Origin: a virus | Taxonomy: Duplodnaviria; Heunggongvirae; Uroviricota; Caudoviricetes | Virus record (IMG/VR): IMGVR_UViG_2548876962_000012 | Direction: 5' to 3' (one strand) | Length of the DNA stretch: 31,871 bases | In this document: positions 1 to 31,871 of the stretch, piece by piece | Layout: every line of letters begins with the position of its first letter | Numbering within the stretch: the first letter of the stretch is position 1 | Program-made: the position numbers and the translations under genes | The notes under the pieces: generated by a model | What the model was told of the DNA's origin: nothing | What the model saw: only the letters and a program-made list of their open reading frames with translations | Databases searched by the model: none

Positions 1-219
1 TTACATCCACATAATTTGCTGCCCTGACGGCAACGGGTGCGGTCTTACGGCGTGGACTTCTCCCGGCTTCACAATGTATCGCTGTACCGACTCATAAGTG
101 ATGAACGTGGCGCTGCAATTCACGTTCTGGCACTGGTGATAACGCTCTTTTGTCGTGTCAGTGATATAGCGGCTTGTACGCGCATGTGCGGCATGCTGGC
201 ATAAAGGACAATGAAACAT
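1..219 (-). CDS. ogr: Ogr late-gene transcriptional activator (zinc finger), 72 aa
   Basis: Translation MFHCPLCQHAAHARTSRYITDTTKERYHQCQNVNCSATF with a C-x2-C...C-x4-C zinc-finger pattern; ATG at 217-219; stop at 1-3. The 93-aa track ORF is an upstream in-frame extension. Confidence 0.9.
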   Translation of the reverse strand: MFHCPLCQHAAHARTSRYITDTTKERYHQCQNVNCSATFITYESVQRYIVKPGEVHAVRPHPLPSGQQIMWM

Positions 220-300
220 CGCGAGCACCTCTTCCGGTTTTGTTGATGGTGCCATTTTAGTTAATTTGCCCTTATAAAACAAACAGATAAATAAAACACA

Positions 301-1464
301 TCACTCATTACCTTCTGTTTCGTACTCCACATCAGAAAGCCTGACCTCAAGCTCTAAGGACGTCGTGAAGCCGCTATTATTCAGAAAATGTGTCACCTTA
401 GCGATGGTCCAGTCCTGCTCGTCTATGACGCGCTTAAAGCCTGACACTTTGACCGGCGTTTCCGTGTAAATATCTGCACGACCGGTAGCCAGGCTGATGG
501 AGAACTCCGCTACGCCCCGTTGCAGTTTATCCCACTTCGCCTGAGCGGCGCGCATGGCCTGCGCTTTCGTGGCATATACCGTGGTCAGGGCAAAAACATT
601 GTCAGCCTCACCGGCCATGTATTCACCTTCGCGCGCTTCCGGTACTTTTGGCGCTTTCTTCTGCGTGACCGGTTTCGCTTTCGGGTGCTCCAGTGCGCGC
701 AGGTGTTTCTCTTTCTTTTTGCGTTTCAGTTTTACCTTCTGCTTTTGTGGCTTCGGGTCTTTGGTGTGTAACCACTTTGCCGTTACGCCGGTGTAGGCTC
801 CGCGGTCAGCAATCGCAAAATGATGACGGTCGCCGTCGCTGCGGGTGATGGTAATCTGCGGGATTTTTTTACCGCTGGCCGTCACCCCCTGCCCCGCTTT
901 GAGAAACAGCAGTTTTCCCATTTTTACCGACACCTCGCCGCCGTTGCGTTCAGCAAGACGGGTCAGGAATTTCGCATCAGACTCCTGCGACTGGTCGATG
1001 TGCGGGATTTTAATTCCTGCCAGTGACGGCGCGACACTGGCTTCCAGCCTGTTACGGGAGGCAATCGCCTCAACAATCGCACCGAGCGTGGTGTCATGCC
1101 AGGAGCCTTCACGGCGGGAATTGAGCGTCCCGCGAAAATCTGCACTCCGGGCCCGGATGGTGACCACATCCGGCGCGCCCCGGTGTTCTACCTCATCAAC
1201 GGTGAATTTCCCTTTGCATACCAGGGCAAAACCTTTCCAGCCGATATACACCGTCAGGACAGCGCCACGAACCGGCAGCCCGACCTGCCCGTCGGCATCG
1301 TTCAGTTCAATATCAAGCTGATCAGCCTCAAAGCCCCGGTTATCCGTCAGGGTCATGCTCATCAGACGCTCACTGATATTGCCGGTAATATCCCTGCTGT
1401 CGAGCATCAGCATGTAATCCGGCGTCAGCGTACTGCCTGCATCAAATGTCAGCGTATCCAGCAT
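301..1464 (-). CDS. D: Tail protein gpD (late control gene D), 387 aa
   Basis: 387-aa ORF at the P2 D position, immediately upstream of ogr; ATG start; start overlaps the U stop. Confidence 0.9.
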   Translation of the reverse strand: MLDTLTFDAGSTLTPDYMLMLDSRDITGNISERLMSMTLTDNRGFEADQLDIELNDADGQVGLPVRGAVLTVYIGWKGFALVCKGKFTVDEVEHRGAPDVVTIRARSADFRGTLNSRREGSWHDTTLGAIVEAIASRNRLEASVAPSLAGIKIPHIDQSQESDAKFLTRLAERNGGEVSVKMGKLLFLKAGQGVTASGKKIPQITITRSDGDRHHFAIADRGAYTGVTAKWLHTKDPKPQKQKVKLKRKKKEKHLRALEHPKAKPVTQKKAPKVPEAREGEYMAGEADNVFALTTVYATKAQAMRAAQAKWDKLQRGVAEFSISLATGRADIYTETPVKVSGFKRVIDEQDWTIAKVTHFLNNSGFTTSLELEVRLSDVEYETEGNE

Positions 1465-1943
1465 TATCCCGCCCCCGTCATACCCGTGAATTTAGTTGCC
1501 ATACTGCCCGCCTTACCGATGAGCGATTCCGCCTGTTTACCGATATCGCCATAAAGCGCGGCCAGTGATTCATCAACGCGGGTAAGTGACAGCGTAAAAT
1601 CAATTTTCCGGGGTGTGCCGTCTGCAAAGAAAAGACTCCCTGTTTCACTCACCCTGCTGATGACATACATGCCGTAAATCATGCCGGTGCCATCCAGCAA
1701 CGGCCACGCCCGGCCTTCCTCTGCCATCAGCCTGAGCGTGGTCATCGTCAGCTTTCCGCCGGTCAGTTCGGGATAAAGCACACCGGCAAGCGTGATGTTT
1801 TCCTCGCCAACGCCGAGAAACTGGTAGGCATCCCGTTTACCGATACGGGAATTTGACGGCCAGCGATAATCAGATTCACGCTGCATGGTCTGGTGTGGCA
1901 ACGTCTGGCGCATAAAAACAAACATACCTAACGCGAGCATCAT
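1464..1943 (-). CDS. U: Tail protein gpU, 159 aa
   Basis: 159-aa ORF between T and D; length and position match P2 U. Confidence 0.88.
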   Translation of the reverse strand: MMLALGMFVFMRQTLPHQTMQRESDYRWPSNSRIGKRDAYQFLGVGEENITLAGVLYPELTGGKLTMTTLRLMAEEGRAWPLLDGTGMIYGMYVISRVSETGSLFFADGTPRKIDFTLSLTRVDESLAALYGDIGKQAESLIGKAGSMATKFTGMTGAG

Positions 1944-1957
1944 TTTTCGTCACCTCC

Positions 1958-4405
1958 TTAACCGTCATGCATCATGCTGGCACGGGCGCGCGCACGTTTA
2001 TCCCGCTCGTATTTTTCGAGCGCATCCTGTAACTGGCGGTCAAGCTGTGTCCCCGGCGCAGTACCGCCCGTCAGGTTGATGTGATATTCGTTTTTACTCT
2101 GGTCCACATAAGAGCGACCAGCCGGTGCCGTGACCGGCTGATAAGCCTGATAGCCTGCATAAGAGCTGGTCGCCGGAATATAACCGCCGGTGCCATACGT
2201 GGCGACATGAGTCCTTGCGGCGGTCTGGTCAAGTGTGTCTGACTCTTTGTTGATAACACCGAGTTTTTCCAGTACCCAGTCAATACCGCTGCGCAGTTTG
2301 TTGAACGCATTAAGCGGCAGCATCAGCGCGTCAGCCAGTGCCTGCCCGAACATGACGCCCGTGTCACGGCAACGGTTCAGGGTGTCCTGGGTGGCTTTAA
2401 CCGGGGCAATCAGGTTTTTAAACCACTGCCACGCGGCCTGTAACTTTTCACCCAGCCAGTCAAACAGCGGCTTAAGTGGCGTGAACAGTTCCCCCACCGG
2501 CGCAAATGCCGCTTTCAGCCCTTCAACCACACCGCCAAAGAATGCGCTGACAGGCTCCCAGTATTTACGGATAAGTAACGCCCCGGCGACAATAGCGGCC
2601 ACCACAGCCACAACCGGCCAGCTAATCGCCCCGATGGCGGTCATAACAGCACTGCCAACCGTCGTGAAGATTGCCCCCATTGCGCCTGCTGCCGCGATGA
2701 TGGCATTGATGCCGGTGATAACCGGCCAGGCTACGAGGCCAATGGCACCAATGATGCCAGTCAGCGCCAGTGCACCACCGGCAATAATGCCGATGGTTGA
2801 CGCCAGTGATTTGTTTTTCTGGATCCAGCCGTCGAGTTTTAACACATACTTTGTGGCCGTCTGCGTGAGCTTACGCAGTGCGCCTTCCTGCTGGTCAAAC
2901 AGGTCAGTCCCCACCGCCTCATAAGCGGACTGAAACTCCTTAAAGTCACCGCCGAGGTTGTCCTGCATGATATTTACCAGCTCTGCGGTCTTTCCGTCAG
3001 AGGCTTTAAACGCAGCGGTCAGTTTGTCCAGCTTTCCGGTTGAGGCGGCAGTCATCAGCACGGCGGCGGCTGAACTGGCCTCCTCCCCGAAAATGGTTTT
3101 CATGTATTCAGCCTGCTGGGCAGTACCGAGCCGGTTTTTCTCAAAACTGGCCTGCATTTCTTTCAGAATGGTAAATATTGGCCGGGTGTTTCCCTTACTG
3201 TCTGAGGTTTTCACACCAAGCTCTTTCAGTGCATCCCATGCTTTTCCCGTCGGTGCCTGCAGGCGGCTTAACACGGCACGGCTTCCCGTCCCCGCCATTG
3301 AACCGGTAATTTTTGCATCATGCAGTGCACCGACCATTGCGGCGGTTTCTTCAATGCTGACACCGGCATTTTTTGCCACAGGTGCGGCATAGGTCAGCGC
3401 ATCGCTCATGCCGTCAAAATCGGCGGCGGTTTTGTTCATCGTCATGGAGAGAACATCCCCGATATGAGCGACTTTATCGTTTGAAAGCTGAAAGGCGGAT
3501 TTCATCCCCATCAGCAGGGCGGCGTTTTCTTCCATCGTGCGGCGGTTCGCCAGCGCCATGTTCAGCGTGACCGGCGTTGCCGCCTGAATGGCATCAACAT
3601 CCCCACCGGCTTTCGCAATGATAATCTGTGCACCGGCCGCATCATCCGCCGAGGCGGCGGTATTGTCGCCGAGCTGGCGCGCCTGTTTGCGTAGTGCGGC
3701 CATTTCGGTGGAGTCTTTTGCCACTCCGAGCACAGCCTGTAATTCTGAGTTTTTCTGCGCAAACTCATAACCGGGCATCAGCAGCTTAACTCCGGCCATC
3801 GTTCCCGCCGCCGCAATCCCCACACCGGCAGCGCCCACTGAGGCCATATTTCCGGCCAGTTCCTTGCCTGCCTGATAACGCTGTTTGACTGCGTTAAGTT
3901 TTGCCTGTTGCGCACTGACACGCGCCAGCGCGTCGCGCTGACGGTTAAGTTGTGCGGTGGTTTCACTGATACGGTTTTTCAGTCCCTGCTCATCATGTGC
4001 AAGATTGCGGGTATTAATTCCCACTGCGGCCAGTTCCCGCTGCTGGCGTTTAACGGAATCTGTCAGGCGGTTATATTTCGCCTGTAAGTCCTCCGCCGCA
4101 CGCTTTGCGGATTCCAGCACTTTCGCCTGAGCACGGGTCGGACGTTCAGTGTTTTTAAACTGTGTGGCAAGTGCTTCGGCTTCCTGCCGTGCCTTTTCAA
4201 GTGCATGACCAGTCACGGCAAGCTGTGCGCTGGTCTTGCGAAATCCCTCAATACGGGATGCGTGAGCATTCAGCTCGCGCAGTGATTTTTGTGTTTCCCG
4301 GATATCCCCCGACAGCGACTTACTCGCTGTGCGGATGGATTTAAACGGGCGGGATGCCTGGTCAACAGCCCTGAGCAATACCTGTAATTTTACATTGTTA
4401 CTCAT
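1958..4405 (-). CDS. T: Tail tape measure protein gpT, 815 aa
   Basis: 815-aa ORF with coiled-coil-rich N-terminal half and Gly/Ala-rich hydrophobic segments typical of tape measure proteins; position after E/E'. Confidence 0.9.
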   Translation of the reverse strand: MSNNVKLQVLLRAVDQASRPFKSIRTASKSLSGDIRETQKSLRELNAHASRIEGFRKTSAQLAVTGHALEKARQEAEALATQFKNTERPTRAQAKVLESAKRAAEDLQAKYNRLTDSVKRQQRELAAVGINTRNLAHDEQGLKNRISETTAQLNRQRDALARVSAQQAKLNAVKQRYQAGKELAGNMASVGAAGVGIAAAGTMAGVKLLMPGYEFAQKNSELQAVLGVAKDSTEMAALRKQARQLGDNTAASADDAAGAQIIIAKAGGDVDAIQAATPVTLNMALANRRTMEENAALLMGMKSAFQLSNDKVAHIGDVLSMTMNKTAADFDGMSDALTYAAPVAKNAGVSIEETAAMVGALHDAKITGSMAGTGSRAVLSRLQAPTGKAWDALKELGVKTSDSKGNTRPIFTILKEMQASFEKNRLGTAQQAEYMKTIFGEEASSAAAVLMTAASTGKLDKLTAAFKASDGKTAELVNIMQDNLGGDFKEFQSAYEAVGTDLFDQQEGALRKLTQTATKYVLKLDGWIQKNKSLASTIGIIAGGALALTGIIGAIGLVAWPVITGINAIIAAAGAMGAIFTTVGSAVMTAIGAISWPVVAVVAAIVAGALLIRKYWEPVSAFFGGVVEGLKAAFAPVGELFTPLKPLFDWLGEKLQAAWQWFKNLIAPVKATQDTLNRCRDTGVMFGQALADALMLPLNAFNKLRSGIDWVLEKLGVINKESDTLDQTAARTHVATYGTGGYIPATSSYAGYQAYQPVTAPAGRSYVDQSKNEYHINLTGGTAPGTQLDRQLQDALEKYERDKRARARASMMHDG

Positions 4406-4825
4406 TCGTGTTTCCGCTTCGCTGGAGCGCCTTTTCGCGCCATGTGATGAGTTCGGTCAGGCTCATGGGATACAGTTCTGATGGCGGCCAGTGAAATATC
4501 ACTGCCACATCCGCCATCAGGTCATCTACCGACAGATTTTTCGGAAACGTCACTGCACCGAGTTCGGCGACAAAAAACCGACCACCTTACCGGCCAGTTC
4601 CACAAGGTCAGGCAGTTCCAGCGCGGCGACTTCCTGCTCGGTCAGCATCGGTGCCGTCATGCGCGGCAGCACCTTAATAAGTGCATCGACTTCGGAGTGT
4701 GCGACCGAAGCCAGACTGACACCGCGAAGCGTCCCGGCATTAGGTTTCATCAGCGTGACCTGTTTGATAACCTGCTCACCACGTTTGACCGGATTTTCCA
4801 GGGTAATCACATTTTCTTTGTTCAT
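4398..4825 (-). CDS. E+E': gpE+E' programmed -1 frameshift product, about 142 aa
   Basis: Minus-strand slippery heptamer T6G (plus-strand a-run 4572-4577 plus 4571) near the 3' end of E. The -1 frame continues FFVAELGAVTFPKNLSVDDL...RSGNTNE to a TAA at 4398-4400 that overlaps the T start codon. Confidence 0.75.
4550..4825 (-). CDS. E: Tail assembly chaperone gpE, 91 aa
   Basis: 91-aa ORF between FII and T, ending ...GFLSPNSVQ; the slippery site lies in its last codons. Confidence 0.85.
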   Translation of the reverse strand: MNKENVITLENPVKRGEQVIKQVTLMKPNAGTLRGVSLASVAHSEVDALIKVLPRMTAPMLTEQEVAALELPDLVELAGKVVGFLSPNSVQ

Positions 4826-4881
4826 GGTTTTCTCACATCTGAATCGGGGTTAACCGGTCAGTCAGGCTGACCGGATGAAAA

Positions 4882-5400
4882 TCACAGGCCAATATTGCGG
4901 CGGTGTTGCTCCAGCCGGTCGACGCCGTTCACCTTCTCAATCATGTTGATGGTGTCAATTTCGACCAGCTCCTTACCGTCCATCGTCAGCCGGAAATAGG
5001 TGCAGACCACGGAGATTTTCGACTCGGTGTCTTCTCCCTGTTTACCCTCTCCGGTGTCGATTTCTTTCTGACGTCCACGCATGACCACTTCGACGGCCAC
5101 CGTTTCGCCGGTATCGTCGCGCTGGTAAGAGCCAGCAAAACGAATCGGCACGGCATCCACACCGGTTGCGGCGTAAAGCTCCCAGATAACCGAATCCGGG
5201 AAGCCCCCGAGCGACCACTCCATTGACAGCGCATCGTCATCAAGGCCGAGGTCTACCGGTGCGCTGCCGTTCATCCCCGCACCGCGATAGTTTTCGAGCT
5301 TACGGGTCAGTTTTGGCAGCGTGACGGACTTTGCGACGCCCTGATAGCTGTAGCCGTTCAGAAAGACGTTCATTAACTTGAGTTTGCGCGGCATTGCCAT
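4882..5400 (-). CDS. FII: Tail tube protein gpFII, 172 aa
   Basis: 172-aa ORF directly downstream of the sheath gene; P2 FII length and position. Confidence 0.9.
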   Translation of the reverse strand: MAMPRKLKLMNVFLNGYSYQGVAKSVTLPKLTRKLENYRGAGMNGSAPVDLGLDDDALSMEWSLGGFPDSVIWELYAATGVDAVPIRFAGSYQRDDTGETVAVEVVMRGRQKEIDTGEGKQGEDTESKISVVCTYFRLTMDGKELVEIDTINMIEKVNGVDRLEQHRRNIGL

Positions 5401-5412
5401 CGGTCAGGCTCC

Positions 5413-6603
5413 TTAATTGCTGTTAACCAAGGTGACCAGACTTGCCAGGTATCTTGAAGTAATACGCTGGCGCAGGGTCAGGTTTTCGAGGGGAGGCACC
5501 GGGGTATAGTCGTAGTCGATATACAGTTTTCCGGCCTTGAGGGTTTCCGCATCGTTGGATTCTTCACTGAACCAGCATGTGCCATCCACGATATAACCGT
5601 TGCTTTTCAGTTCGCGGAATTTGGCATTGATGCCATCAATGATGTCGCGAATCAGCGTTGCGGTGATGGGCTTATCAATAGCCCACATGTGCGCCTCAGC
5701 CATCGTGTCAGCCAGTACCTGCGCGGTGCGTGTGTAGCTTTCAAAGAGGAACAGTGGGTCATCGGAGCAGGTACGGTTACCCCAGAAACGGAAACCGTCG
5801 CGGCGAACCAGCGTTGTGACGCCTGCCTCGTTCAGCAGGTCAGCATCAGTGCCAGACTTCTGCAAATCCCAGAATACAGATGCGCTGATGCCGGTAACAC
5901 CGTTTACCCCGACGTTGGACAGCGTTTTATGCCAGCCCTGCTCCTGGTCGATTTTAGCGCGCAGCCCCAGCGCACGGGCGGTGGCATACGCGGTAGCGGT
6001 GGTACTGGTAACCGTATCCCATGCGAGGAAATCTGGCCAGATGACCATCAGCTCACGCTGGCTGAAATTCTGGCGGTAGGCTTTCACCTCGGAAATGGTT
6101 TTACAGCCCCATGCGCTGATATACCCGAATGCATTCAGTTCCTGGCATACCGATGCCAGTGCGACGGCAACCTCTTTGGTGTCCAGCCCCGGCACACCGA
6201 GAATGCGCGGTTTAACGCCGGTAACCGACTCAGCCCCCATCAGGGCTTTCAGTCCGGTGTACTGACCGTTTTCGTCGGTGGTGCCGATGATATTGGAAAC
6301 GGTCTGCGCGAGCTTCGTTTCCTCGTCGTCGCCGGTGCCGTCTTCCACACGCACAACAACGGTGACCGGTTTTGACTGGTCAGCGATGGCCTGCAACGAT
6401 GCCGCCAGCGTGCCTTTTTTACCGGCCTTTGCAATTGCGCTCTGCACATTGGTAATCAGCACAGGTTTATTGAGGGGGAAGGTTTCCGCATCCGCATCGC
6501 TGGCCGTGCAGACCATGCCGACAATGGCGGTGGATACGGTGGAAATGACGCGGGTGCCGTCGTTAATCTCCAGCACCTGCACGCCATGATGATAGTCGCT
6601 CAT
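5413..6603 (-). CDS. FI: Contractile tail sheath protein gpFI, 396 aa
   Basis: 396-aa ORF; P2 FI length and position at the head of the FI-FII-E-T-U-D operon. Confidence 0.9.
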   Translation of the reverse strand: MSDYHHGVQVLEINDGTRVISTVSTAIVGMVCTASDADAETFPLNKPVLITNVQSAIAKAGKKGTLAASLQAIADQSKPVTVVVRVEDGTGDDEETKLAQTVSNIIGTTDENGQYTGLKALMGAESVTGVKPRILGVPGLDTKEVAVALASVCQELNAFGYISAWGCKTISEVKAYRQNFSQRELMVIWPDFLAWDTVTSTTATAYATARALGLRAKIDQEQGWHKTLSNVGVNGVTGISASVFWDLQKSGTDADLLNEAGVTTLVRRDGFRFWGNRTCSDDPLFLFESYTRTAQVLADTMAEAHMWAIDKPITATLIRDIIDGINAKFRELKSNGYIVDGTCWFSEESNDAETLKAGKLYIDYDYTPVPPLENLTLRQRITSRYLASLVTLVNSN

Positions 6604-6697
6604 CCGTTTAACTCCGTGGTTAATGGGTGCAACTATTTTCTGTTGGGCAGTGCATGAGACGCTATTTGACCTGGCTGGTCAGTGGATGAAACAACAG

Positions 6698-6726
6698 ATA
6701 AAGAAAAGGCGGGCAATTCACCCGCC
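6698..6726 (-). terminator. Rho-independent terminator downstream of the HExxH cargo gene
   Basis: Minus strand reads GGCGGG-TGAATTG-CCCGCC followed by TTTTCTT (stem arms at 6708-6713 and 6721-6726). Confidence 0.5.
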
Positions 6727-6931
6727 TGTCCTGATTTGTACTCACTCATTTTCCGACTGACAATTTACTTAGCCCAAAAGCTATCAAATCTGACAGTCTG
6801 CTTCAGACAAAGAGCGGTCATTAAATGATAGAAGATTTTATTTCATTTTTGTGCCAGAAGCTGCCGCTCAGTAACTCCCGCAATAAATGGTGCGAAGAAT
6901 GAGCGTCTGGCGACCGAATTTCATTACCTTG

Positions 6932-7900
6932 TTATATGCCATTTTCAAGATCTGCGATTAGGTCAAAGCATAGCGATTTATAATCCTTTACGATCTTCGG
7001 CCGAATGGTTATTGAATGATATTTCAGCAACGCAAGGGCGAATGAGGAAAAATACAGCCAGAACCAGTCATCTTCCGGTAAATTGACATCTTGCACAGTC
7101 GCCGACCAACGCCCGTAAATGGGAGGATGAGTCTCTGAACCCGCGAGACGGTTTCTTCCTGTTGCGAAAAGGATAAAGGCGAATGCTAGAGCGATCCCCA
7201 TCATACGCTTCATCCTAACCTTTTCCGGGGGATACCCACTGCTTGCGGCGTACTCATCGATCTTGGATATCATCATATCCTTAGCGAACTGATCACACAG
7301 ATATTCTTCGTCCTTCGGGTCTTCCGGTGCATTTCCTTCAACTGAGAAAATTACGTGCTTCAGTTCATGTAAAAATACATATGCCGTAGCCATGCACATA
7401 AGATCATATACTGCAGCGCTCTCTGAATCTGACGGCCTACCCTTCTCAGGCTCAGGAATAGCCACTGGCCATTCAAAGTCGTCTTCATGAAATGCAGTGC
7501 TCAGGTCTTTCACTGCATCAAGTATCGACTTGAAGGCTTCATCTTCTGCTGCCTGATCTGGAATCTTGTTGATTTTGTTTATGTCGAGAGTGGCACCGCA
7601 TGATTTGAACAATTCAATCAACGAACAATAACAATGTAACGCCTGCATTCCCGCATAACTGAAAAGCCATATTTGACGCATTGATCTGCTGGTGTACTGG
7701 ATTGCGGAGAATCCTCCAGCATCTAAGTTAAATCCTTCGCGGTCACCAATCAGTCGGAACTGGGCATCATAATCGTTAGCGATAGATTCAATCTCTGATG
7801 CTCTCTCAGGAACAACACCGTCAAAAAGTTTTCGAACATTGTCTGTCGTTTCCACTAGTCCTCCTATGGCATATAAAAGTGCGTTATACCGGCCCCGCAA
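6932..7900 (-). CDS. Cargo protein with HExxH motif, putative zinc metallopeptidase, 322 aa (Z/fun position)
   Basis: AT-rich ORF between G and FI; HELKH at residues 178-182 followed by acidic residues; one hydrophobic segment (GIALAFAFILFATG); TTG start at 7900 preceded by a strong SD (AAGGAAG, 6-nt spacer); own downstream terminator. Confidence 0.6.
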   Translation of the reverse strand: MRGRYNALLYAIGGLVETTDNVRKLFDGVVPERASEIESIANDYDAQFRLIGDREGFNLDAGGFSAIQYTSRSMRQIWLFSYAGMQALHCYCSLIELFKSCGATLDINKINKIPDQAAEDEAFKSILDAVKDLSTAFHEDDFEWPVAIPEPEKGRPSDSESAAVYDLMCMATAYVFLHELKHVIFSVEGNAPEDPKDEEYLCDQFAKDMMISKIDEYAASSGYPPEKVRMKRMMGIALAFAFILFATGRNRLAGSETHPPIYGRWSATVQDVNLPEDDWFWLYFSSFALALLKYHSITIRPKIVKDYKSLCFDLIADLENGI

Positions 7901-8080
7901 GGTCGGCTTCCTTGCAAGCCAGATTACCTTGTAAGGTCAGAAAGTCCAATGACAACTTTATGTACGAAGCAGTAATTGAGCTACTACGTATAAATGACCG
8001 CTCCTGGCACAGAGCGGCCTCCCAGATTCGGCTTTACTCTGTGCCATAGATATGTAAGCTCCCACCAGAGCTCATACAAC

Positions 8081-8608
8081 TTATTGCGGCATTTCCGGCC
8101 ATTCAGGATTTGCAGGATCCACACGACTGACCAGAACGCTGTAGCGTTCCCATGTTTTAAGTCGGCTACGCTCCTCATCTGTTGCCATATTCAGCCTGAC
8201 AGCACGCTCCAGCGGCAAAATCACGGATTCAGCATCTGCAAGAAGTCTGGCTTTCCGATTTTCTGCCTGCTGCTGCAATTCCTCTGCCGTATAAATGCGT
8301 TTAATCACTTTGCCGTCCTTAAACATCCAGTTCCCTGAAATGTCCGCCCGTCGGTTAGCAGTAATATCCGCCACTTCAACAACACTTAATCCATCCGGTC
8401 TGATAGCTGTCACATCCTTTTCCACATAGTGGATGATATTATCTTTGTCGTACGCTATTTTTATCGTGTCATCAGCAAAATACTTTTGTTCTTCGTACCA
8501 GTTCTTACCATCTTCTGAAAAAAACCAGACAACATCAAAGTCCTTTGTCAATTGATATTGTTCAACCGTTTTTGGATTACCCGCCGAAATATTTTTTAAA
8601 TGCTGCAT
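8081..8608 (-). CDS. G: Tail fibre assembly chaperone gpG, 175 aa
   Basis: 175-aa ORF immediately downstream of H; length and position of P2 G. Confidence 0.85.
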
Positions 8609-8611
8609 AAA

Positions 8612-10861
8612 TTATACCTGCGCCACGTTATACCATGTCCCGTTAATGTATTTCTGCACCGGTCTGTAATATACGCCACCAATGTTATCGGCAGAGTTTG
8701 AGCCGGTATCCTGAACAATAATGCCGGTATATACGCAACCTGACGGAGCCTGATGCGTCCATGTAGTACCATTATTTGCTGGTTTATATGTAGATGCACC
8801 GCCCAGCCGCATGTCTCTCATATAACGTGAATCTGACTCAGTTTTGGTGTATGCACCAACATCTCCCGCTGAGGGTTTATGAGCAGTTGTATATAGTTGC
8901 GCCCATCCAGACCAGTTAGCATCTGTGGTATCTCGTCGGGAGCGAATATATGCCGGAGCATGAGCACCGCTGGTTCCACTCCAGCCAATAAGTAACTCAC
9001 CCTCTCCTACTGCGGTTACGCCAGTGAGATGAAGCACATTACCATAGGCTGTTGGGTAGCCATTGTTGTATGCCTCATACATCTGAACACCTGGTGTCCC
9101 CTTTACGCTCCCACCTAATGCAGTAACACGGTTTCTGGATACCAGTGTATTAATATTTATATCGGCAGAGCCATCAAATCTGACACCATTAATATTTCTT
9201 GCGTTCGCTAACTTCGTTGCTGTTGCAGCATTTCCTGAAAGGCTGGAAATAAATGGATGTGAACAGTAATAACCACGTCCATTTTTAAAATCCAGAATAG
9301 CCTGTGCGTTCGTGCTTTCTGTAGCGGGATTAGTTGCCCCCCACTTATATGTCGTCTGACCGACGACATAATCCTCTGTCGGAACAATAACCGTTAGCCC
9401 TTCCTCTGCAAGAATTTGTACAGGGAAAGCTCTGGCTTCAACATAAAAAACACTACATACATCATCATCTTTCAGGCTTGTAACAATGGAATGAATTGAA
9501 CGCTCATTAGTCTGATACGTCCAGAAATAACCTGCCGCATATGAACCACGATCAGTCCAGCCTCCGGGCATAACCATGCCATTAAACTCGCAGTTATTCA
9601 TTACATAATCGCTGTTATAACAACCAGTGGAAATAACGACGCGGGATGCCATTTCTCCTGAAAGGCTGGCAGCACGGCGAAAGATAACGGGATACCACTT
9701 CCCGGCAACGACATTTGCAGGGGCTGCAAACGAATACTTTCGCATTCCCTTTTTCTTATCCACTTCACCTTTGCTGTAAACATTAATGTTACTCAGGAAG
9801 CGTCCTTTATCAGGAATATCCGCACCGTTCTGATCTTTCTGAAGACGTTTTTCAGCATTGTCATAGGCAGACTTCACCGCTTTTGGTGTTGCGGCCAGCG
9901 TTTCAGAATCACTGTTGGTGGCGCTACTGAGCTGGACAAGCCCTTTTCGCGCCGTGGTGGCATCCTGTGCAGTGTATTTCCCGTTAGCAAGGTCATACGC
10001 GGCCTTTACCGCCTTTGGCGTTGCCGCAAGCATTTCAGAATCGCTGTTGGTGACGCTACTGAGCTGGACAAGACCTTTTCGCGCTGTGGTGGCGTCCTGT
10101 GCAGTGTATTTCCCGTTAGCAAGGTCATATGCTGCCTTTACCGCTTTCGGCGTTGCGGCGAGCGTTTCAGACGTGCTGTTAGTCGCACTACTGAGCTGAA
10201 CAAGGCCTTTTCGCGCGGTGGTAGCGTCCTGTGCGGTATATTTCCCGTTAGCAAGGTCATATGCGGCCTTAACCGCTTTCGGCGTTGCAGCCAGTGTTTC
10301 AGACGTGCTGTTGGTCGCACTGCTTAACTGAGTAAAACCTTTTGCGGTCAGCGAGGCGTCAGGGTGACGTCGTGACTGTTCATGTTCTGCAATTTTGTCA
10401 TCAACGTAATCCTGCGTTGCCATCACCGTTGTGGTGTCAATGGTCAGCTCCACTGAGGCCACACTGCTGACGATGATGACCATGCGGCAGGTCTGCGAAC
10501 GCCCTGAGCCTTCGGCAAGAGCTGGCTTATAACTTTCGGCCATGTTCGCCACGGCAATTAACGTTCCAGCATCATCGTACAGGCCAAGCTCACGCATCCA
10601 GAAACCGCCCACCTCCGGCGGAATAACCAGCTCTGCGATAATATAATTACTGTTTCGTTTGTCCTGGCTGATTTTGTTCAGCGCATGTCGCCAGACTTCG
10701 TGGATAAGCCCGGTCTGTCCGGCATCCGGGACAGGCAATTTACCACCGCCATCCCCGACGGCCATCGTGGTAATGTTGACCTTCCGCCCTCCCGGTGCGG
10801 TTGCCGCTGCCAGCTTTGCTGCACCGGCAGTGGTGATAACGGTTTTGAATTTTGTGCTCAT
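8612..10861 (-). CDS. H: Tail fibre protein gpH, 749 aa
   Basis: N-terminus MSTKFKTVITTAGAAKLAAA typical of P2-family H; four tandem 44-aa tail-fibre repeats; a variable C-terminal region. Confidence 0.9.
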   Translation of the reverse strand: MSTKFKTVITTAGAAKLAAATAPGGRKVNITTMAVGDGGGKLPVPDAGQTGLIHEVWRHALNKISQDKRNSNYIIAELVIPPEVGGFWMRELGLYDDAGTLIAVANMAESYKPALAEGSGRSQTCRMVIIVSSVASVELTIDTTTVMATQDYVDDKIAEHEQSRRHPDASLTAKGFTQLSSATNSTSETLAATPKAVKAAYDLANGKYTAQDATTARKGLVQLSSATNSTSETLAATPKAVKAAYDLANGKYTAQDATTARKGLVQLSSVTNSDSEMLAATPKAVKAAYDLANGKYTAQDATTARKGLVQLSSATNSDSETLAATPKAVKSAYDNAEKRLQKDQNGADIPDKGRFLSNINVYSKGEVDKKKGMRKYSFAAPANVVAGKWYPVIFRRAASLSGEMASRVVISTGCYNSDYVMNNCEFNGMVMPGGWTDRGSYAAGYFWTYQTNERSIHSIVTSLKDDDVCSVFYVEARAFPVQILAEEGLTVIVPTEDYVVGQTTYKWGATNPATESTNAQAILDFKNGRGYYCSHPFISSLSGNAATATKLANARNINGVRFDGSADININTLVSRNRVTALGGSVKGTPGVQMYEAYNNGYPTAYGNVLHLTGVTAVGEGELLIGWSGTSGAHAPAYIRSRRDTTDANWSGWAQLYTTAHKPSAGDVGAYTKTESDSRYMRDMRLGGASTYKPANNGTTWTHQAPSGCVYTGIIVQDTGSNSADNIGGVYYRPVQKYINGTWYNVAQV
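9850..10375. repeat. Four tandem 132-bp in-frame repeats inside gene H
   Basis: Period exactly 132 bp (landmark tttcaga at 9900, 10032, 10164, 10296); encoded 44-aa unit KGLVQLSSATNS(T/D)SETLAATPKAVKAAYDLANGKYTAQDATTAR. Confidence 0.85.
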
Positions 10862-14162: not shown

Positions 14163-14168
14163 TTCTCT

Positions 14169-18441: not shown

Positions 18442-19515
18442 TTACGCTCCCGGCTCTGCGGTCGCCTTAGCCGGTGTGGAGAAATCACCGACCTTGATTT
18501 TTTCCACCAGACAACCGGCGGCGTAGTCTTCCACCACGTAATCAATGTTCATTGACTCGTAGTTCTCCACGCGGTCGAGTTTCGGGTTTTCCACAATCAC
18601 GCGGCGATGGCTGTCATCCATGTAGTAGATGGACAGGTTTTCCAGCTTCGTGATGAGCATCGCATCCGCCGGGAAGTACGGGACGCGTACCGCCGGCAGG
18701 TTACCGATGCGTTTCTGACTGATGATGACGTCAGCGGCCAGCATTTCGCTGTTGTCCTGCTCTTTGTTGACGATGGGGAAATACTTGTCCGCCAGTAGCT
18801 GACGCCCCACAATCACCACAAGGTCAGGGTCTTCCTGATACCAAGGTTCAATCAGGTTGTTGGTCGCATCCATCACCAGTGCATCGAGGCTTACATAATC
18901 ACCGCCCTTACCCACGCGGATGACCTCAGAGGTGGTGCGGCCTTCCTCGTCAGTGACCTTGCTCATCACGCGCGCCGGGGCTTCATTGCGGTATTTCTGC
19001 AGCCAGCCGACTGCCACATCCTGCAGCATCGGATTGCTGCTGCGGTCAGAGGTTTCGGCACGCTTCACGCCGTTAAAACCGGCCATGATGAAATCAAGGG
19101 ACTGGCGTTTGATAATGGCGTTACGGATACGGAGCTGGAAATCCTGATAACGCGCCCACAGGTCCAGCGTTTTGTAGCGGATATAAAAATCGAAGTTAAT
19201 CTGGTCGCATTCGTACTTGTTTGACGCCAGCTTCGAGAAGTCCTTCGGCTGACGCTCGGTGCCACCGGCGGTGTCGGTGGTGCTGGCGATGGAGCCGGTG
19301 ACACCAATACCAATTTTTTCCCCTTTCATTTCGCTGACCGGCACAATGTTGATGCGGGTCAGAAAGTCAGAGGACTCCTGCATGGTGTTCATCAGGGTCT
19401 GGGTGACCGACGGTTCAACGGTGAATTTTTTCGACACATCACCGGCGTCGATGCCGTTCAGTTCGGCAACACGGGACAGGTAGGCATTAAATTTAAAGCG
19501 GGTTTCCTGGCGCAT
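18442..19515 (-). CDS. N: Major capsid protein gpN, 357 aa
   Basis: 357-aa ORF; P2 N length and position. Confidence 0.9.
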   Translation of the reverse strand: MRQETRFKFNAYLSRVAELNGIDAGDVSKKFTVEPSVTQTLMNTMQESSDFLTRINIVPVSEMKGEKIGIGVTGSIASTTDTAGGTERQPKDFSKLASNKYECDQINFDFYIRYKTLDLWARYQDFQLRIRNAIIKRQSLDFIMAGFNGVKRAETSDRSSNPMLQDVAVGWLQKYRNEAPARVMSKVTDEEGRTTSEVIRVGKGGDYVSLDALVMDATNNLIEPWYQEDPDLVVIVGRQLLADKYFPIVNKEQDNSEMLAADVIISQKRIGNLPAVRVPYFPADAMLITKLENLSIYYMDDSHRRVIVENPKLDRVENYESMNIDYVVEDYAAGCLVEKIKVGDFSTPAKATAEPGA

Positions 19516-19682
19516 AGTTTTTCCTGAAATTAAGGGTTAATCGTGAAGGTTTTTCCCGGACTGACTGACGCCGGTCAGCAGTTCGTCATCAGGGCGTCAC
19601 CGCCACCACCGGTGGCCTTGCTGCGGCGCTGCTGGGTCAGACTTTCGGTGTGGTCGAGACTGTTTTTCAGGCGGGTGAATGC

Positions 19683-20429
19683 CTAGCTGGTTTCATCCGC
19701 CCTGTCAGTCACCTCCTGCTTAAGAGCGGAAAAGGCAGTTTCCACCTCAGCGAGGCGCTGCTCAGTGGCGCTCAGTTTTTCCTGCACATGTTCAGCAACA
19801 GCGGTCACCGCTTCATGCACGTCATTCAGACGGGCGTCATCGCTGGCCTGTTTGCGGCCAAAAATGGATTTCACCTTTTCGGTCAGGGCGGTGAACACGG
19901 TTTCAGGCAGGTCTTCAAATTCCAGCTCAACAGGCGTTGCCACTGAAATCAGGTTTTCAGGGCTTAATTTGAAGCGGTTCAGGGGGTTGTGTTTTGCCGT
20001 GCGGCAGAATTCCAGGTATTCCGTGCCGAGGCTTGCCGGGTCATCGGTGACGGCCAGCCCCACCAGATAACATTTGCCGGTGTTGGCAAAGTTCGGCTGA
20101 ATTTCCATTGAGGTATAGACCTTCTGCGCGGCCTTGTTCATCGCGATAAGGTCATCGGTCGGGGTGATTTTCGCAAACAGCGCCCATTTGCCTTTCAGCG
20201 CCGAATCGTCGTCAATCTTTTCGGCCTTCAGTTCGACCACATCGCCATAACGCTTAAAAATACCGTCAGGCAGGATGCCGCGCAGATGTTCCAGGTTAAT
20301 GCGGCAACCATAGACACGCGGGTCAAAGGTTTCGGCCATTTCCTGAATATCCTGCGCACTGATGACACGCCCGTCACAGGTGTCACCCTCAACGCCGATA
20401 CGAAAGAATTTTGAGACTTTTTTTGCCAT
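19683..20429 (-). CDS. O: Capsid scaffold/protease gpO, truncated at codon 249 by an in-frame TAG (full-length frame would be 19575-20429, 284 aa)
   Basis: ATG at 20427-20429 (MAKKVSKFFRIGVEGD); TAG at 19683-19685; the same frame continues AFTRLKNSLDHTESLTQQRRSKATGGGGDALMTNC to a TGA at 19575-19577, which restores the P2 gpO length of 284 aa. Confidence 0.8.
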   Translation of the reverse strand: MAKKVSKFFRIGVEGDTCDGRVISAQDIQEMAETFDPRVYGCRINLEHLRGILPDGIFKRYGDVVELKAEKIDDDSALKGKWALFAKITPTDDLIAMNKAAQKVYTSMEIQPNFANTGKCYLVGLAVTDDPASLGTEYLEFCRTAKHNPLNRFKLSPENLISVATPVELEFEDLPETVFTALTEKVKSIFGRKQASDDARLNDVHEAVTAVAEHVQEKLSATEQRLAEVETAFSALKQEVTDRADETS

Positions 20430-20602
20430 TGTCAGGAGTCCTGAATAGTGATTAGAGGAGTCACATGTCGGCATCAGTTTCCCGACGATACGCATCCTTC
20501 GCCATCAGTCCCGGATGGCTTATCACTGACACAACAGCACCTTAGCGAATCGCGGGGCGCGACTCAGTAGCCTTGCCGTGTATTCATCACGGCGAGGTAT
20601 TC

Positions 20603-22375
20603 ATGACCATCACCACAGACACCACTCTTTTACACGACCCGCGTCGTCAGGCGGCGCTGCTGTACTGGCAGGGGTTTTCCGTGCCGCAGATTGCCGCCAT
20701 GTTGCAGATGAAACGCCCGACGGTGCAGAGCTGGAAACAGCGCGACGGCTGGGACAGCGTTGCCCCCATCAGCCGTGTCGAAATGAGCCTGGAAGCGCGG
20801 CTGACCCAGCTCATCATCAAACCGCAGAAAACCGGCGGTGACTTCAAGGAAATTGACCTGCTGGGACGCCAGATTGAACGACTGGCACGGGTCAACCGTT
20901 ACAGCCAGACCGGCAACGAGGCAGACCTTAATCCGAACATCGCTAACCGCAACAAAGGCGGGCGTCGCAAACCGAAAAAGAATTTTTTCAGTGACGAGGC
21001 CATCGAAAAGCTGGAGCAGATTTTCTTTGAGCAGTCTTTCGAATATCAGTTGCACTGGTATCGCGCCGGGCTTGAGCACCGCATCCGCGATATCCTGAAA
21101 TCCCGCCAGATTGGCGCGACGTTTTATTTTTCCCGCGAGGCGCTGCTGCGCGCCCTGAAAACCGGTCATAACCAGATTTTTCTGTCGGCCAGTAAAACGC
21201 AGGCGTATGTGTTCCGCGAATACATCATCGCCTTTGCCCGGCTGGTTGACGTTGACCTGACCGGTGACCCGATTGTCCTGGGCAATAACGGCGCAAAACT
21301 GATTTTTCTCGGCACCAACTCCAACACCGCACAGAGCCATAACGGCGACCTGTACGTCGATGAGATTTTCTGGATCCCGAATTTTCAGGTACTGCGTAAG
21401 GTGGCATCAGGTATGGCCTCACAGAGTCACCTGCGCTCGACCTATTTCTCCACCCCGTCCACGCTGGCGCACGACGCCTACCCGTTCTGGTCGGGTGAAC
21501 TGTTCAACCGGGGTCGCGCCAGCGCCGCCGAACGCGTGGAAATCGACGTCAGTCATAACGCCCTTGCCGGAGGTCTTCTCTGTGCGGACGGCCAGTGGCG
21601 GCAGATTGTCACCATTGAGGACGCGCTGAAAGGCGGCTGCACGCTGTTCGACATTGAGCAGCTCAAACGTGAAAACAGCGCCGACGATTTTAAAAACCTG
21701 TTCATGTGTGAATTTGTTGACGACAAAGCGTCGGTGTTCCCGTTCGAGGAGCTGCAACGCTGCATGGTCGACACGCTGGAAGAATGGGAAGACTATGCGC
21801 CGTTTGCCGCGAATCCGTTCGGCTCCCGCCCGGTATGGATTGGTTACGACCCGTCACACCGTGGCGACAGTGCCGGATGCGTGGTGCTGGCACCGCCGGT
21901 GGTGGCCGGTGGCAAATTCAGAATACTTGAGCGTCACCAGTGGAAAGGCATGGACTTTGCCACTCAGGCTGAATCCATCCGCAAACTCACCGAAAAATAC
22001 AACGTCGAATACATCGGTATTGATGCCACCGGCCTCGGTGTCGGCGTGTTCCAGCTCGTGCGCTCGTTCTATCCCGCCGCGCGCGACATCCGCTACACGC
22101 CGGAAATGAAAACCGCAATGGTGCTCAAGGCAAAAGACGTCATCCGCCGTGGCTGTCTGGAATATGACGTCAGCGCCACCGACATCACCAGCTCGTTTAT
22201 GGCTATCCGCAAGACCATGACCAGCAGCGGACGCAGCGCCACCTATGAGGCCAGCCGCAGCGAGGAAGCCAGCCACGCCGACCTCGCCTGGGCGACCATG
22301 CACGCCCTGTTAAATGAGCCACTCACCGCCGGTATCAGCACTCCGCTGACATCCACCATTCTGGAGTTTTACTGA
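20603..22375 (+). CDS. P: Terminase large subunit gpP, 590 aa
   Basis: ATG at 20603 with SD GAGGT; 590 aa as in P2 P; stop overlaps the Q start (TGATG). Confidence 0.9.
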   Translation: MTITTDTTLLHDPRRQAALLYWQGFSVPQIAAMLQMKRPTVQSWKQRDGWDSVAPISRVEMSLEARLTQLIIKPQKTGGDFKEIDLLGRQIERLARVNRYSQTGNEADLNPNIANRNKGGRRKPKKNFFSDEAIEKLEQIFFEQSFEYQLHWYRAGLEHRIRDILKSRQIGATFYFSREALLRALKTGHNQIFLSASKTQAYVFREYIIAFARLVDVDLTGDPIVLGNNGAKLIFLGTNSNTAQSHNGDLYVDEIFWIPNFQVLRKVASGMASQSHLRSTYFSTPSTLAHDAYPFWSGELFNRGRASAAERVEIDVSHNALAGGLLCADGQWRQIVTIEDALKGGCTLFDIEQLKRENSADDFKNLFMCEFVDDKASVFPFEELQRCMVDTLEEWEDYAPFAANPFGSRPVWIGYDPSHRGDSAGCVVLAPPVVAGGKFRILERHQWKGMDFATQAESIRKLTEKYNVEYIGIDATGLGVGVFQLVRSFYPAARDIRYTPEMKTAMVLKAKDVIRRGCLEYDVSATDITSSFMAIRKTMTSSGRSATYEASRSEEASHADLAWATMHALLNEPLTAGISTPLTSTILEFY

Positions 22376-23801: not shown

Positions 23802-24254
23802 TTATGCTTCCTCTGTATTCATAAGTCTTAAAAGAATTTCTCCAGTGCTAGCATCAGACATTAGATCATTTAACGCTTTGATTAACGTTTCTTTATCTTT
23901 GCACCTAACATCCCGTTTGTTATAAGAAATCACACATGGATAACCATCTGATTCATTTATCTTCCAAACAGCAATGTTCTCTTTAACTTCTGTTTGCTCT
24001 CTCTTAGTTACGAACGATAGAGCTTCGTAATCGATGTAAGGGTTGATGTTTGTAATCGAACTCACAACGGCAGTAAGCGCTGTCTGATTAGGTGCGAGTT
24101 TTTTTTCACTCGTAACTTTCAAAAACACTCGCCCTTGACTAAGCTCCTTTACACTGTCACTTAAGTCACTGATAACACTAAAAATTTCTTCTTTATTTGA
24201 TCTTGCTTTTTTGGCTGCCTCTAACCCCACAGCTAATGAATTTTTGAAATCCAT
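23802..24254 (-). CDS. Cargo protein of unknown function, 150 aa, downstream partner of the EEP gene
   Basis: AT-rich ORF; ATG 4 nt after the EEP gene stop with a GAGAGG SD-like element; no TM segments or recognisable motifs. Confidence 0.6.
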   Translation of the reverse strand: MDFKNSLAVGLEAAKKARSNKEEIFSVISDLSDSVKELSQGRVFLKVTSEKKLAPNQTALTAVVSSITNINPYIDYEALSFVTKREQTEVKENIAVWKINESDGYPCVISYNKRDVRCKDKETLIKALNDLMSDASTGEILLRLMNTEEA

Positions 24255-24258
24255 TTTT

Positions 24259-25161
24259 TTAACCTCTCGTAATTACAGCGATAACAGGTAAATGATCAAA
24301 GTTAGTTTTTGGACTTGTCACCAAATTTTTAAAGACTTCATCGTTAATGATTTTAACCTCATCCTCCAAAAGATTCCAATCTCCACCAGAAATGAATGAA
24401 GAGGAGAAAATAATTTGATCAAATGTATGCCAACGGGTTACAGCACCGCCACTGTAATAATATGTCCCGTAAGTACTCAAATGATGATCTTCTGATGGAA
24501 AACTAATTGAAGCCCCCATAAAATTCCAAAAAGGGTTGTATAAAAAAATATCTTTTTTGACAACCAAGTCTCTATCCCTTGTTGCCCCTAAAGCATGTGT
24601 AATAGATTTATTAAAGGGATCGTCATTGTAATCACCTAAAAGAATAAAATACTTTCCTGACTTTTCCTCTATACATCTACTGATCGCTCCTCGCAAAGCT
24701 TTTCCTAATTCATATCGTTTTGGCATTTCTTCATTAGAATCATTACCTCTCATAGGCCAATGCGATATGTAGAAAAAAAAATGATCCCCACTATTATTAT
24801 GCATGAGCTGAACTTCTTGCCCGGCTCTTACCGCTCCTAACAATGACTGTTCAACAATACTTTTACTATCAATGTAAGTGAAAGTAGCTAGCTTTATAAG
24901 AATGCACATATCATGTTTTATGCTTCCTTCAGTGAAAGTCCCATCATATATTATGAACCCTTTCTCTGAGAAAATCTCCTCTAAAACCTTAATATCTGAT
25001 GGTGATATTTCTCCAAGACATAGAATATCAACATTATGACTCATCAAAATATTTGTTATAAGAGCAAATGCTACATCCAACTCTTCAGGAGTAGAACGAT
25101 CTCTTTTAACCGCAGGAGATATCCCCGTATTCCACCAAGCGATTGAAACAGCCTCACACAT
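24259..25161 (-). CDS. Cargo EEP-fold (endonuclease/exonuclease/phosphatase family) protein, 300 aa
   Basis: Very AT-rich ORF; ordered EEP signature motifs: WWNTG near the N-terminus, DILCLGE (the LCLQE-type motif), LLGDYNDD (GDxN), and FDHLPV (SDHxPV-type) at the C-terminus. Confidence 0.7.
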   Translation of the reverse strand: MCEAVSIAWWNTGISPAVKRDRSTPEELDVAFALITNILMSHNVDILCLGEISPSDIKVLEEIFSEKGFIIYDGTFTEGSIKHDMCILIKLATFTYIDSKSIVEQSLLGAVRAGQEVQLMHNNSGDHFFFYISHWPMRGNDSNEEMPKRYELGKALRGAISRCIEEKSGKYFILLGDYNDDPFNKSITHALGATRDRDLVVKKDIFLYNPFWNFMGASISFPSEDHHLSTYGTYYYSGGAVTRWHTFDQIIFSSSFISGGDWNLLEDEVKIINDEVFKNLVTSPKTNFDHLPVIAVITRG

Positions 25162-30012: not shown

Positions 30013-30022
30013 AATTACCTCC

Positions 30023-30379
30023 TTAGGCCGCGTGGCCATGTCTGGATTTGCTGTAACTTATGCGATTCTTCCAGTCATGCCATTCTGTCGGAGCTTCATC
30101 GACTAGTTGAGCTGCATATTTGTCCCACTCACGACGATTAATCCATAACTCAGCATGACCGCCCGGCTTTAACGGGTCTGTCATATAGAATGCTGGCAGC
30201 TTTCCAGCTCGTGCCATTTCAGCCACCGCACGAGGAGTCTTACCGATGTAAAGAGCAAAACCCTCTTTCGACAGTAAATCTGACGGATCCGCAGCCAACT
30301 TAATGGAATCACGCTTGTTTTTTTTAAGAGCAGAAACTTCTTGTCTTTTCTCGTCACAAATTTCAGATCCGACATTCAT
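30023..30379 (-). CDS. cox: Cox-like excisionase / early-operon regulator (HTH), 118 aa
   Basis: First gene of the early operon, divergent from C; segment YIGKTPRAVAEMARAGKLPAFYMTDP resembles the Cox-family HTH; ATG with GAGGA SD. Confidence 0.6.
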   Translation of the reverse strand: MNVGSEICDEKRQEVSALKKNKRDSIKLAADPSDLLSKEGFALYIGKTPRAVAEMARAGKLPAFYMTDPLKPGGHAELWINRREWDKYAAQLVDEAPTEWHDWKNRISYSKSRHGHAA

Positions 30380-30482
30380 TTTGCTATCCTCACATTGATG
30401 TCAGCGATCTAGAGCGATTTAGAGTCGTTAGATGCTGATAAATCATATCAACTATGCAAAAGAATACGAGGTTAGAGAATTT
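30380..30482. promoter_or_regulatory. Immunity switch region (divergent Pe/Pc promoters and operator)
   Basis: 103-bp intergenic region between the divergent cox-like and C genes; three imperfect direct repeats at about 10-bp phasing (tctagagcga / tttagagtcg / ttagatgctg). Confidence 0.5.
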
Positions 30483-30782
30483 ATGTCAACTGACACTAGC
30501 GAACGTTTGAAGCTTATCCGTGAGTCTGAACGTCTGAAAATGAAGGAGGTAGCTGAACTAGCTGGCATCAACTACACCACATATGCAGGTTATGAATCAG
30601 GTAAGGCTATGATGTCCCTAGAAAATGCTAAGAAGTTTTTTAAAGTAGAAAGGTTCAGAAAATACCGTGACTGGTTCATGTTTGATGAAACTGATCCAGC
30701 AGCTGGACAAATAGCCCCGGCTCTCGCACACATTGGGCAAGACTCAACAATCTTGCACCACTCAGACCAAAAGACTGGCTGA
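30483..30782 (+). CDS. C: Immunity repressor C, 99 aa
   Basis: Start taken at the ATG at 30483 (MSTDTSERLKLIRESERLKMKEVAELAGINYTTYAGYESG, HTH), giving 99 aa; C-terminus GQIAPALAHIGQ...SDQKTG resembles P2 C. Confidence 0.8.
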   Translation: MSTDTSERLKLIRESERLKMKEVAELAGINYTTYAGYESGKAMMSLENAKKFFKVERFRKYRDWFMFDETDPAAGQIAPALAHIGQDSTILHHSDQKTG

Positions 30783-30875
30783 CGATTTATTCAGCATATG
30801 TGTGCAGTAAATGTACGAAAGAAAATTGCATTAATTTTCAAGTAGTAGAAGTAAACAGCGTCATCGGAGGGCTTT

Positions 30876-31871
30876 ATGTCTATTAAAAAGCTCGATGATG
30901 GTCGTTATGAAGTGGACGTCAGACCGCAGGGTGCAGATGGAAAACGTATCAGGCGGAAATTTAAAACTAAAGGTGAAGCTCAGGCATTCGAACGTCATGT
31001 GCTGGTTAATTACCACAACAAAGAGTGGTTAGAGAAGCCAGCCGACCGCCGAACTCTTACAGAGTTGTTAGGCAGATGGTGGATATATCACGGAAAATCA
31101 CATGAGCGTGGAGATATTGAACGAGGGCGTTTAACGACAATAATCGCCAAATTTGCAGAAATGGGAGTGTCCAGAGCAGACCAGCTAACAAAGAAAACGA
31201 TAACTGATTATCGCGTTGTAATGATGAACGATGGTCTAAAACCAGCCAGCGTAAATCGGCATCTGGCAATAATGAGCGGGATGTTCACCAAGTTAATTGA
31301 CGCCGGTGAATACCACTCTCACAACCCGTTCCGTGAGGTTAAGCGGTTACGTGAAGCTGTTACGGAAATGGCTTTTTTGTCCAGTGAAGAGATTACGCGG
31401 CTGTTATCCATGCTTGATGGCGATGAATTAAATGCAACGCTGGTCTGCCTTTCTACTGGTGGACGTTGGAGTGAAGTGTCTAATTTAAAAGCTGAACACA
31501 TCATTAACCAGATGGTTACGTTTATGAAAACTAAAAACGGAAAGCGCAGGACAATTCCCGTTTCGCAGGACCTGATTAAACGGATCAAGACCAAAAATTC
31601 AGGCAGGCTTTTTAATGCCAGTTACTACAAAGTGCGCAACGCTCTCAGGGAAGTAAAACCCGATTTACCTGACGGACAGGCAGTGCATGTTTTGAGGCAT
31701 ACATTTGCCACACATTTTATAATGAATGGAGGTAACATAATCACATTGCAGCGCATCCTGGGTCATTCTAACATTCAGCAAACTATGACCTACGCACACT
31801 TTGCACCGGATTTCTTACAAGATGCAGTGACTCTTAACCCGGTGTCAGGAATGTCCATAATGCGTCCATAA
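30876..31871 (+). CDS. int: Tyrosine integrase, 331 aa
   Basis: N-terminus MSIKKLDDGRYEVDVRPQG as in P2-family Int; C-terminal catalytic region HVLRHTFATHF...LGHSNIQQTMTYAHF with the R, H-x-x-R and Y residues. Confidence 0.9.
   Translation: MSIKKLDDGRYEVDVRPQGADGKRIRRKFKTKGEAQAFERHVLVNYHNKEWLEKPADRRTLTELLGRWWIYHGKSHERGDIERGRLTTIIAKFAEMGVSRADQLTKKTITDYRVVMMNDGLKPASVNRHLAIMSGMFTKLIDAGEYHSHNPFREVKRLREAVTEMAFLSSEEITRLLSMLDGDELNATLVCLSTGGRWSEVSNLKAEHIINQMVTFMKTKNGKRRTIPVSQDLIKRIKTKNSGRLFNASYYKVRNALREVKPDLPDGQAVHVLRHTFATHFIMNGGNIITLQRILGHSNIQQTMTYAHFAPDFLQDAVTLNPVSGMSIMRP

Follow-up and report, generated by a model that had tools for sequence, protein, structure and literature searches.

Gene O of phage P2, which encodes the capsid scaffold and maturation protease gpO, is, together with its counterpart in phage fiAA91-ss, the closest described relative of the locus analyzed here. 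The terminal cysteine of gpO is reportedly needed for correct assembly, and D19, H48, and S107 are said to make up its full catalytic triad. Classical genetic work on P2 yielded amber mutants of gene O, whose expected phenotype is the absence of heads in a non-suppressing host. Residues 1–141 of gpO constitute the protease, and residues 195–284 form an internal scaffold that is "absolutely required" if P2 procapsids are to assemble (PMC7552001). Viable P2 and viable P4 both need gpO, and the O(S107A) mutant is protease-deficient, supporting S107 as an active-site residue (PMC7552001). Amber hotspots at CCAGG were first described in lacI, and the passage of PMC11603525 that cites Coulondre et al. 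1978 gives 5-methylcytosine (5mC) deamination at CCAGG as the classical cause of amber hotspots in E. coli.

We analyzed a stretch of 31,871 nucleotides (the window) that comprises a complete P2-family (Peduoviridae) prophage, extending from the ogr stop codon (position 1) to the int stop codon (31871). Its gene O resembles that of P2 in its 284-codon frame, in amino acid identity (98.9%), in possessing D19, H48, and S107, and in its place between the divergent P gene and N, but differs from the full-length gpO of P2 and of phage fiAA91-ss in having TAG at codon 249 and in the consequent loss of a conserved tail. With the lacI-type Dcm hotspots the locus shares a CCAGG whose internal C opens a CAG codon, and a C-to-T change from Gln to amber; those hotspots are known from selected laboratory mutants, whereas here the change is a fixed variant of a natural prophage at a presumably methylated site. 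With the classical P2 O ambers it shares an amber codon in O and differs in backbone, immunity, integration module, and natural host. Cryptic or defective P2-like prophages of E. coli offer a further likeness, as integrated elements with a lesion in an essential morphogenesis gene; relative to such prophages, which decay by point mutation and then deletion, the window represents the earliest stage, with one nonsense codon and the other late genes intact. The scaffold family, the P2-family prophage, and the Dcm-hotspot amber are all known kinds, and nothing at the locus falls outside them. We propose, with a probability of roughly 80%, that a spontaneous C-to-T change at a Dcm site made O amber in an otherwise intact prophage of a natural strain, as the first step of its decay.

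Gene O and its amber codon

The ATG of gene O lies at 20429-20427 on the minus strand, and codon 249 is TAG (19685-19683, minus strand). Past this codon the frame continues through 35 sense codons to a TGA (19577-19575), and the ancestral gene comprised 284 sense positions plus a stop, equal in length to P2 gpO. A first-pass annotation, made from the letters of the window alone, had described a TAG at 19683-19685 as codon 249 of O, followed by 35 sense codons and a TGA at 19575-19577 in a frame of 284 amino acids, the P2 gpO length; frame reading agrees exactly on the position of the amber codon, and the frame together with the P2 alignment confirms the remainder. That alignment, against P2 O (AF063097), spans 855 nt without gaps and has CAG at P2 codon 249; downstream of this codon the two genes show two further differences (AAG/AAA and GGT/GGC), both synonymous. 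CAG (Gln) stands at codon 249 in P2 and in every relative examined, as was read directly in P2 and in a sister prophage, L008, from another E. coli (GCA_016998655.1), answering the question posed at first pass of whether related O genes carry a sense codon here. The features of the locus are as follows.

19575-20429, minus strand: ancestral O frame (capsid scaffold/maturation protease), 284 codons plus stop, interrupted (frame reading, P2 alignment, Pfam)
19686-20429, minus strand: surviving reading frame for gpO(1-248), with the protease domain including D19/H48/S107 and the start of the C-terminal scaffolding domain
19683-19685, minus strand: amber TAG derived from CAG (Gln249); the plus strand has A at 19685 where relatives have G
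19682-19686, minus strand: former Dcm site CCAGG, now CTAGG, the changed base being the internal cytosine (sequence comparison)
19575-19682, minus strand: orphaned last 35 codons and ancestral TGA, with 0 differences from the sister prophage
18442-19515, minus strand: N, which follows O in the operon and encodes the major capsid protein (357 aa, 99.4% identity to P2 gpN); intact
20603-22375, plus strand: P, large terminase gene, divergent, intact, 590 aa, 99.7% identical to P2 gpP
20430-20602, no strand assigned: probable divergent late promoter region in the O/P interval (homology to P2 annotation)

Because the stretch beyond the TAG is identical to that of the sister prophage, the continuation of the frame reflects ancestry and not chance. 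The O locus is effectively a pseudogene, a member of the GPO family by descent whose product is truncated. The O/P promoter region is also identical in the window and the sister prophage; homology to P2 predicts the O-operon transcription start at ~20469 and an Ogr activator site at ~20509-20539, with coordinates carried over from the P2 record (window position = 23596 minus P2 position).

The prophage, its host, and its sister

The prophage adjoins pflB on contig AICB01000005.1 (180,807 bp) of the draft E. coli assembly GCA_000447065.2; window position 19685 falls at about 146,560 of this contig, which encodes the 248-aa O product (exact-protein match). The flank beyond ogr contains pflB, focA, ycaO, and serC and matches E. 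coli chromosomes with an identity of 99.8% or more; the ogr-pflB junction recurs in human, poultry, and river-water isolates. Because the flank is E. coli-like and the junction is found in natural isolates, we regard the window as an integrated prophage in a natural-type E. coli. The window ends coincide with the ogr and int stop codons, and attL and attR lie outside it.

The late genes follow the P2 order (Q P / O N M L X Y K lysABC R S, then V W J I H G / FI FII E T U D / ogr) and show 75–100% amino acid identity to P2 over their full length, with the exception of V (86% over 205 of 211 residues) and H. When all 42 P2 proteins were searched against the window by tblastn, all P2 essential genes were matched at full or near-full length, and O was the only essential gene with a stop inside its alignment. 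The one other in-alignment stop was in the nonessential orf81, for which the alignment extends upstream of the window's own 96-aa reading frame. A scripted check found the 23 other late genes and ogr to be single uninterrupted reading frames, bearing out the earlier statement that O alone among the structural genes is broken.

Although its late genes are ~96% identical to P2 at the DNA level, the element itself is not P2. Its integrase, C, and Cox proteins share 53%, 43%, and 35% amino acid identity, respectively, with those of P2, and tblastn found no match in the window for fun(Z), tin, old, or orf91 of P2, in place of which the element carries other cargo. The immunity and integration module (30015-31871) is not of the P2 type; its integrase is a widespread protein, and among relatives that share the integrase, the int side adjoins a radical-SAM gene. 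At the variable Z/fun locus of P2, a 322-aa reading frame (6932-7900, minus strand; 307 aa as called on AICB01000005.1) matches Peptidase_U49 and the PADLOC 'Lit' model (E = 1.8e-14), and on the basis of these matches we assign it as a Lit-like anti-phage protease cargo gene replacing fun(Z). The old/tin locus of P2, a position known as a hotspot for defence genes, is occupied by genes (23802-25161, minus strand) for a 300-aa Exo_endo_phos (PF03372) protein and a 150-aa protein without a family, neither of which had a PADLOC match. The tail-fibre gene H (8612-10861, minus strand) encodes 749 aa, compared to 669 in P2, is P2-like over its first 251 residues only, and contains an internal direct repeat (9860-10215 and 9992-10346, 86.5% identical).

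Many other assemblies encode exactly the tail-fibre protein found in the window, among them that of the sister prophage, whose O protein has 284 aa. Over window positions 1-20861, the two prophages differ by 4 mismatches in 20,861 nt (99.981% identity).

4266: T codon 47, Ala in the window and Gly in the sister prophage
4635: E codon 64, Gln in the window and Leu in the sister prophage
14164: intergenic
19685: O codon 249, TAG in the window and CAG in the sister prophage

With P2 as the outgroup, the O amber, the Gly47Ala change in T, and the change at 14164 are derived in the window lineage, and the E change is derived in the sister prophage. The T substitution (GGT to GCT) is specific to the window lineage relative to both the sister prophage and P2; the change at 14164 is a C-to-T just past the orf30 stop, ahead of a shared terminator hairpin; and none of the three derived differences of the window lineage is synonymous. 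With Gln249 restored, gpO is 100% identical to that of the isolated phage fiAA91-ss. The TAG allele is derived, private to the strain, and very recent, and of the two origins offered by the first-pass annotation, a very recent inactivation and a laboratory-style amber allele, it is the former that agrees with a 99.98% identical sister carrying CAG and a 284-aa O.

Distribution and origin of the codon-249 change

We searched the 1,602 O copies of 5,426 complete E. coli genomes, and a further 79 phage records, with a 59-mer centred on the TAG; none contained it exactly, and in both sets the closest sequences differed at one position. Exact 39- and 26-mers containing the TAG had 0 matches in collections of species-representative genomes, viruses, and metagenomes. 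The same stop in functional relatives, which had been named at first pass as the observation that would speak against inactivation, was therefore found in none of these O copies or phage records. Because no collection scanned gave a match, we conclude that the TAG does not circulate as an allele and is not a conserved signal for recoding. Conserved stop-codon read-through or recoding was considered as a separate candidate and rejected, the stop not being shared by relatives. A 90% cluster of short gpO proteins consists mostly of sequences that end at residues 230–240; most are labelled 'partial', they look like contig-edge fragments, and they do not serve to estimate how often O is truncated.

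The one other occurrence of the TAG allele is in the Logan assembly of SRR21142932, a second assembly of the same strain. The exact 248-aa product is listed under both NCBI and Logan, with a second carrying contig reported and grouped as a similar place. Two contigs alone carry the window-specific T variant, the NCBI contig and Logan SRR21142932_102, the latter being 100% identical to window positions 1-9992. The SRR21142932 reads are either an independent re-sequencing or the original set behind the NCBI assembly.

These data bear on the reading that codon 249 is CAG in the wild strain and that the TAG arose by mutation in culture or through faulty sequencing or assembly. Its source is a draft assembly, and the allele is a singleton known from one strain, as such an artefact would be; against this, the Logan assembly, built independently, encodes an identical 248-aa O and shares the window's bases at the remaining lineage-specific sites within 1-9992, and a random error would strike the hotspot base only ~0.2–0.7% of the time. 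Plain consensus error is unlikely because an assembly made from SRA reads reproduces the TAG allele, and we judge the artefact reading as a whole, culture-borne mutation included, to be improbable. Verification of the base call in reads, advised by the first-pass annotation, is partly answered by this agreement between assemblies.

The base that changed lies in a mutable context. The ancestral coding strand reads AGC CAG GCA and holds a CCAGG, in which C-to-T at the internal C gives CTAGG. The restored sequence of 31,871 bases has 37 CCWGG sites and hence 74 5mC positions (0.23% of bases), of which 19685 is one. Just one of the 82 possible stop-creating substitutions in O is of the Dcm type, namely the codon-249 change; across the late genes, Dcm-type changes account for 13 of 1,973 possible nonsense substitutions (0.66%) and for 2.9% when only the 447 transitions are considered. 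Most E. coli carry dcm, and Dcm sites would be expected to be methylated in this host. An origin by 5mC deamination at the Dcm site is probable rather than proven, because C-to-T changes also arise at unmethylated cytosines.

The tetramer CTAG is strongly depleted in the window (16 observed, ~124 expected from base composition), and the new CTAGG therefore makes one of the element's rarest tetramers. CCWGG occurs at about half its expectation (37 versus 68).

The truncated product and the fate of the prophage

With Gln249 restored, gpO matches Pfam PF05929 at 366.9 bits (curated cut-off 33.6) across residues 6–284 and the whole model (1–268 of 268); the family is also assigned to the 248-aa product as called, and an NCBIfam profile search returned no match for either form. 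In tblastn searches of the restored protein, alignments with relatives of ~42–45% identity reach residue 284. We aligned eight gpO homologues with identities down to 42%, from P2, 186, and Yersinia, Klebsiella, Ralstonia, Burkholderia, and Mannheimia phages. D19, H48, and S107 are invariant in all eight and are kept by the truncated product. L258, R269, G274, and T282 are also invariant, and all four fall in the lost 36 residues; the terminal Cys is present in seven of the eight, and C284 is encoded only past the TAG. Translation ends at residue 248, and the complete scaffolding domain (195–284) with its R...ATGG...T(D/N)C tail is absent from the product. The placement of the lost C-terminal segment in the scaffolding region, as first noted from the sequence, holds, since the 36 residues fall within the required domain 195–284.

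The truncated protein should still cleave and bind gpN yet fail as a scaffold, and the prophage should therefore yield no infectious particles. That it is probably defective in head assembly, as had been supposed at the outset, is supported by the family-invariant residues in the lost tail and by the requirement for domain 195–284 (PMC7552001). Re-initiation of translation downstream of the TAG was considered and rejected, the sole in-frame start codon there being the ATG at codon 281. Between the new O stop and the start of N lie 168 nt with a slight excess of C (31.5%, against 24.4% G), and one may speculate that Rho-type transcriptional polarity on N results from these ~168 untranslated nt.

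The prophage would stay viable if the TAG were suppressed, either by read-through or by an amber suppressor tRNA of the host. A supE-type, Gln-inserting suppressor would exactly undo the CAG-to-TAG change at the protein level, and the 35 codons downstream of the TAG are undamaged; an undamaged tail is, however, equally expected from recency, with 3 derived changes in 20.8 kb. We looked for a phage-borne suppressor tRNA in the window and found none, the window being without a tRNA gene. A literature search on natural amber suppressors gave nothing useful, and, to our knowledge, suppressors are absent from most natural E. coli isolates. Scaffold proteins are needed in stoichiometric amounts, and basal UAG read-through in E. 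coli is far lower. We consider suppression very doubtful.

It is equally hard to credit that the truncation is tolerated, such that gpO(1-248) acts as a scaffold and the prophage is fully functional. The product retains the entire protease domain and 54 residues of the 90-residue C-terminal domain, but the invariant L258, R269, G274, and T282 and the conserved terminal Cys are gone, residues 195–284 are required for assembly (PMC7552001), and no functional phage or other prophage in the collections searched has a stop here. As for a classical conditional-lethal P2 O mutant in a laboratory lysogen, to which the CAG-to-TAG change bears a resemblance and which was the other origin entertained at first pass, we reject it as extremely improbable because the backbone is not that of P2 and because the near-identical sister and the ogr-pflB junction place the element among natural isolates, and the TAG sits on a hotspot of spontaneous mutation.

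The course of events that we favor, a spontaneous Dcm-site mutation in a natural prophage, would have begun with deamination of the 5mC of CCAGG to T, escaping very-short-patch repair. Gln249 (CAG) of O is now an amber codon, and the product, gpO(1-248), keeps the serine-protease domain and lacks the last 36 scaffold residues. Without the tail, gpO would be unable to scaffold P2-size procapsids and infectious particles would be lost; the immunity, replication, tail, lysis, and cargo genes are still readable. On this account, the O amber is the first visible step of prophage decay.

A different outcome, which we regard as very improbable, is that gpO(1-248) leaves a helper that serves only satellites of the P4 type, which bring their own external scaffold Sid, or a keeper of tails, lysis, and Lit-like defence. 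gpO(1-248) retains the protease and a middle region thought to recruit the portal, and in the satellite-helper case it would lose internal-scaffold activity only, leaving a prophage without T=7 heads of its own. If true, a single hotspot mutation would turn a helper into a satellite-only or host-serving element.

For the preferred reading, decay begun by a Dcm-site mutation, the significance beyond annotation is small, and no long-standing question is opened. Annotation should record O as a pseudogene and treat the prophage, complete as it looks, as probably defective in head formation, which is a caution for scoring prophages as 'intact' by gene content alone. The locus offers a neat natural case of the textbook Dcm amber hotspot, and it shows inactivation at an early point, one base in a background 99.98% identical to an intact sister.
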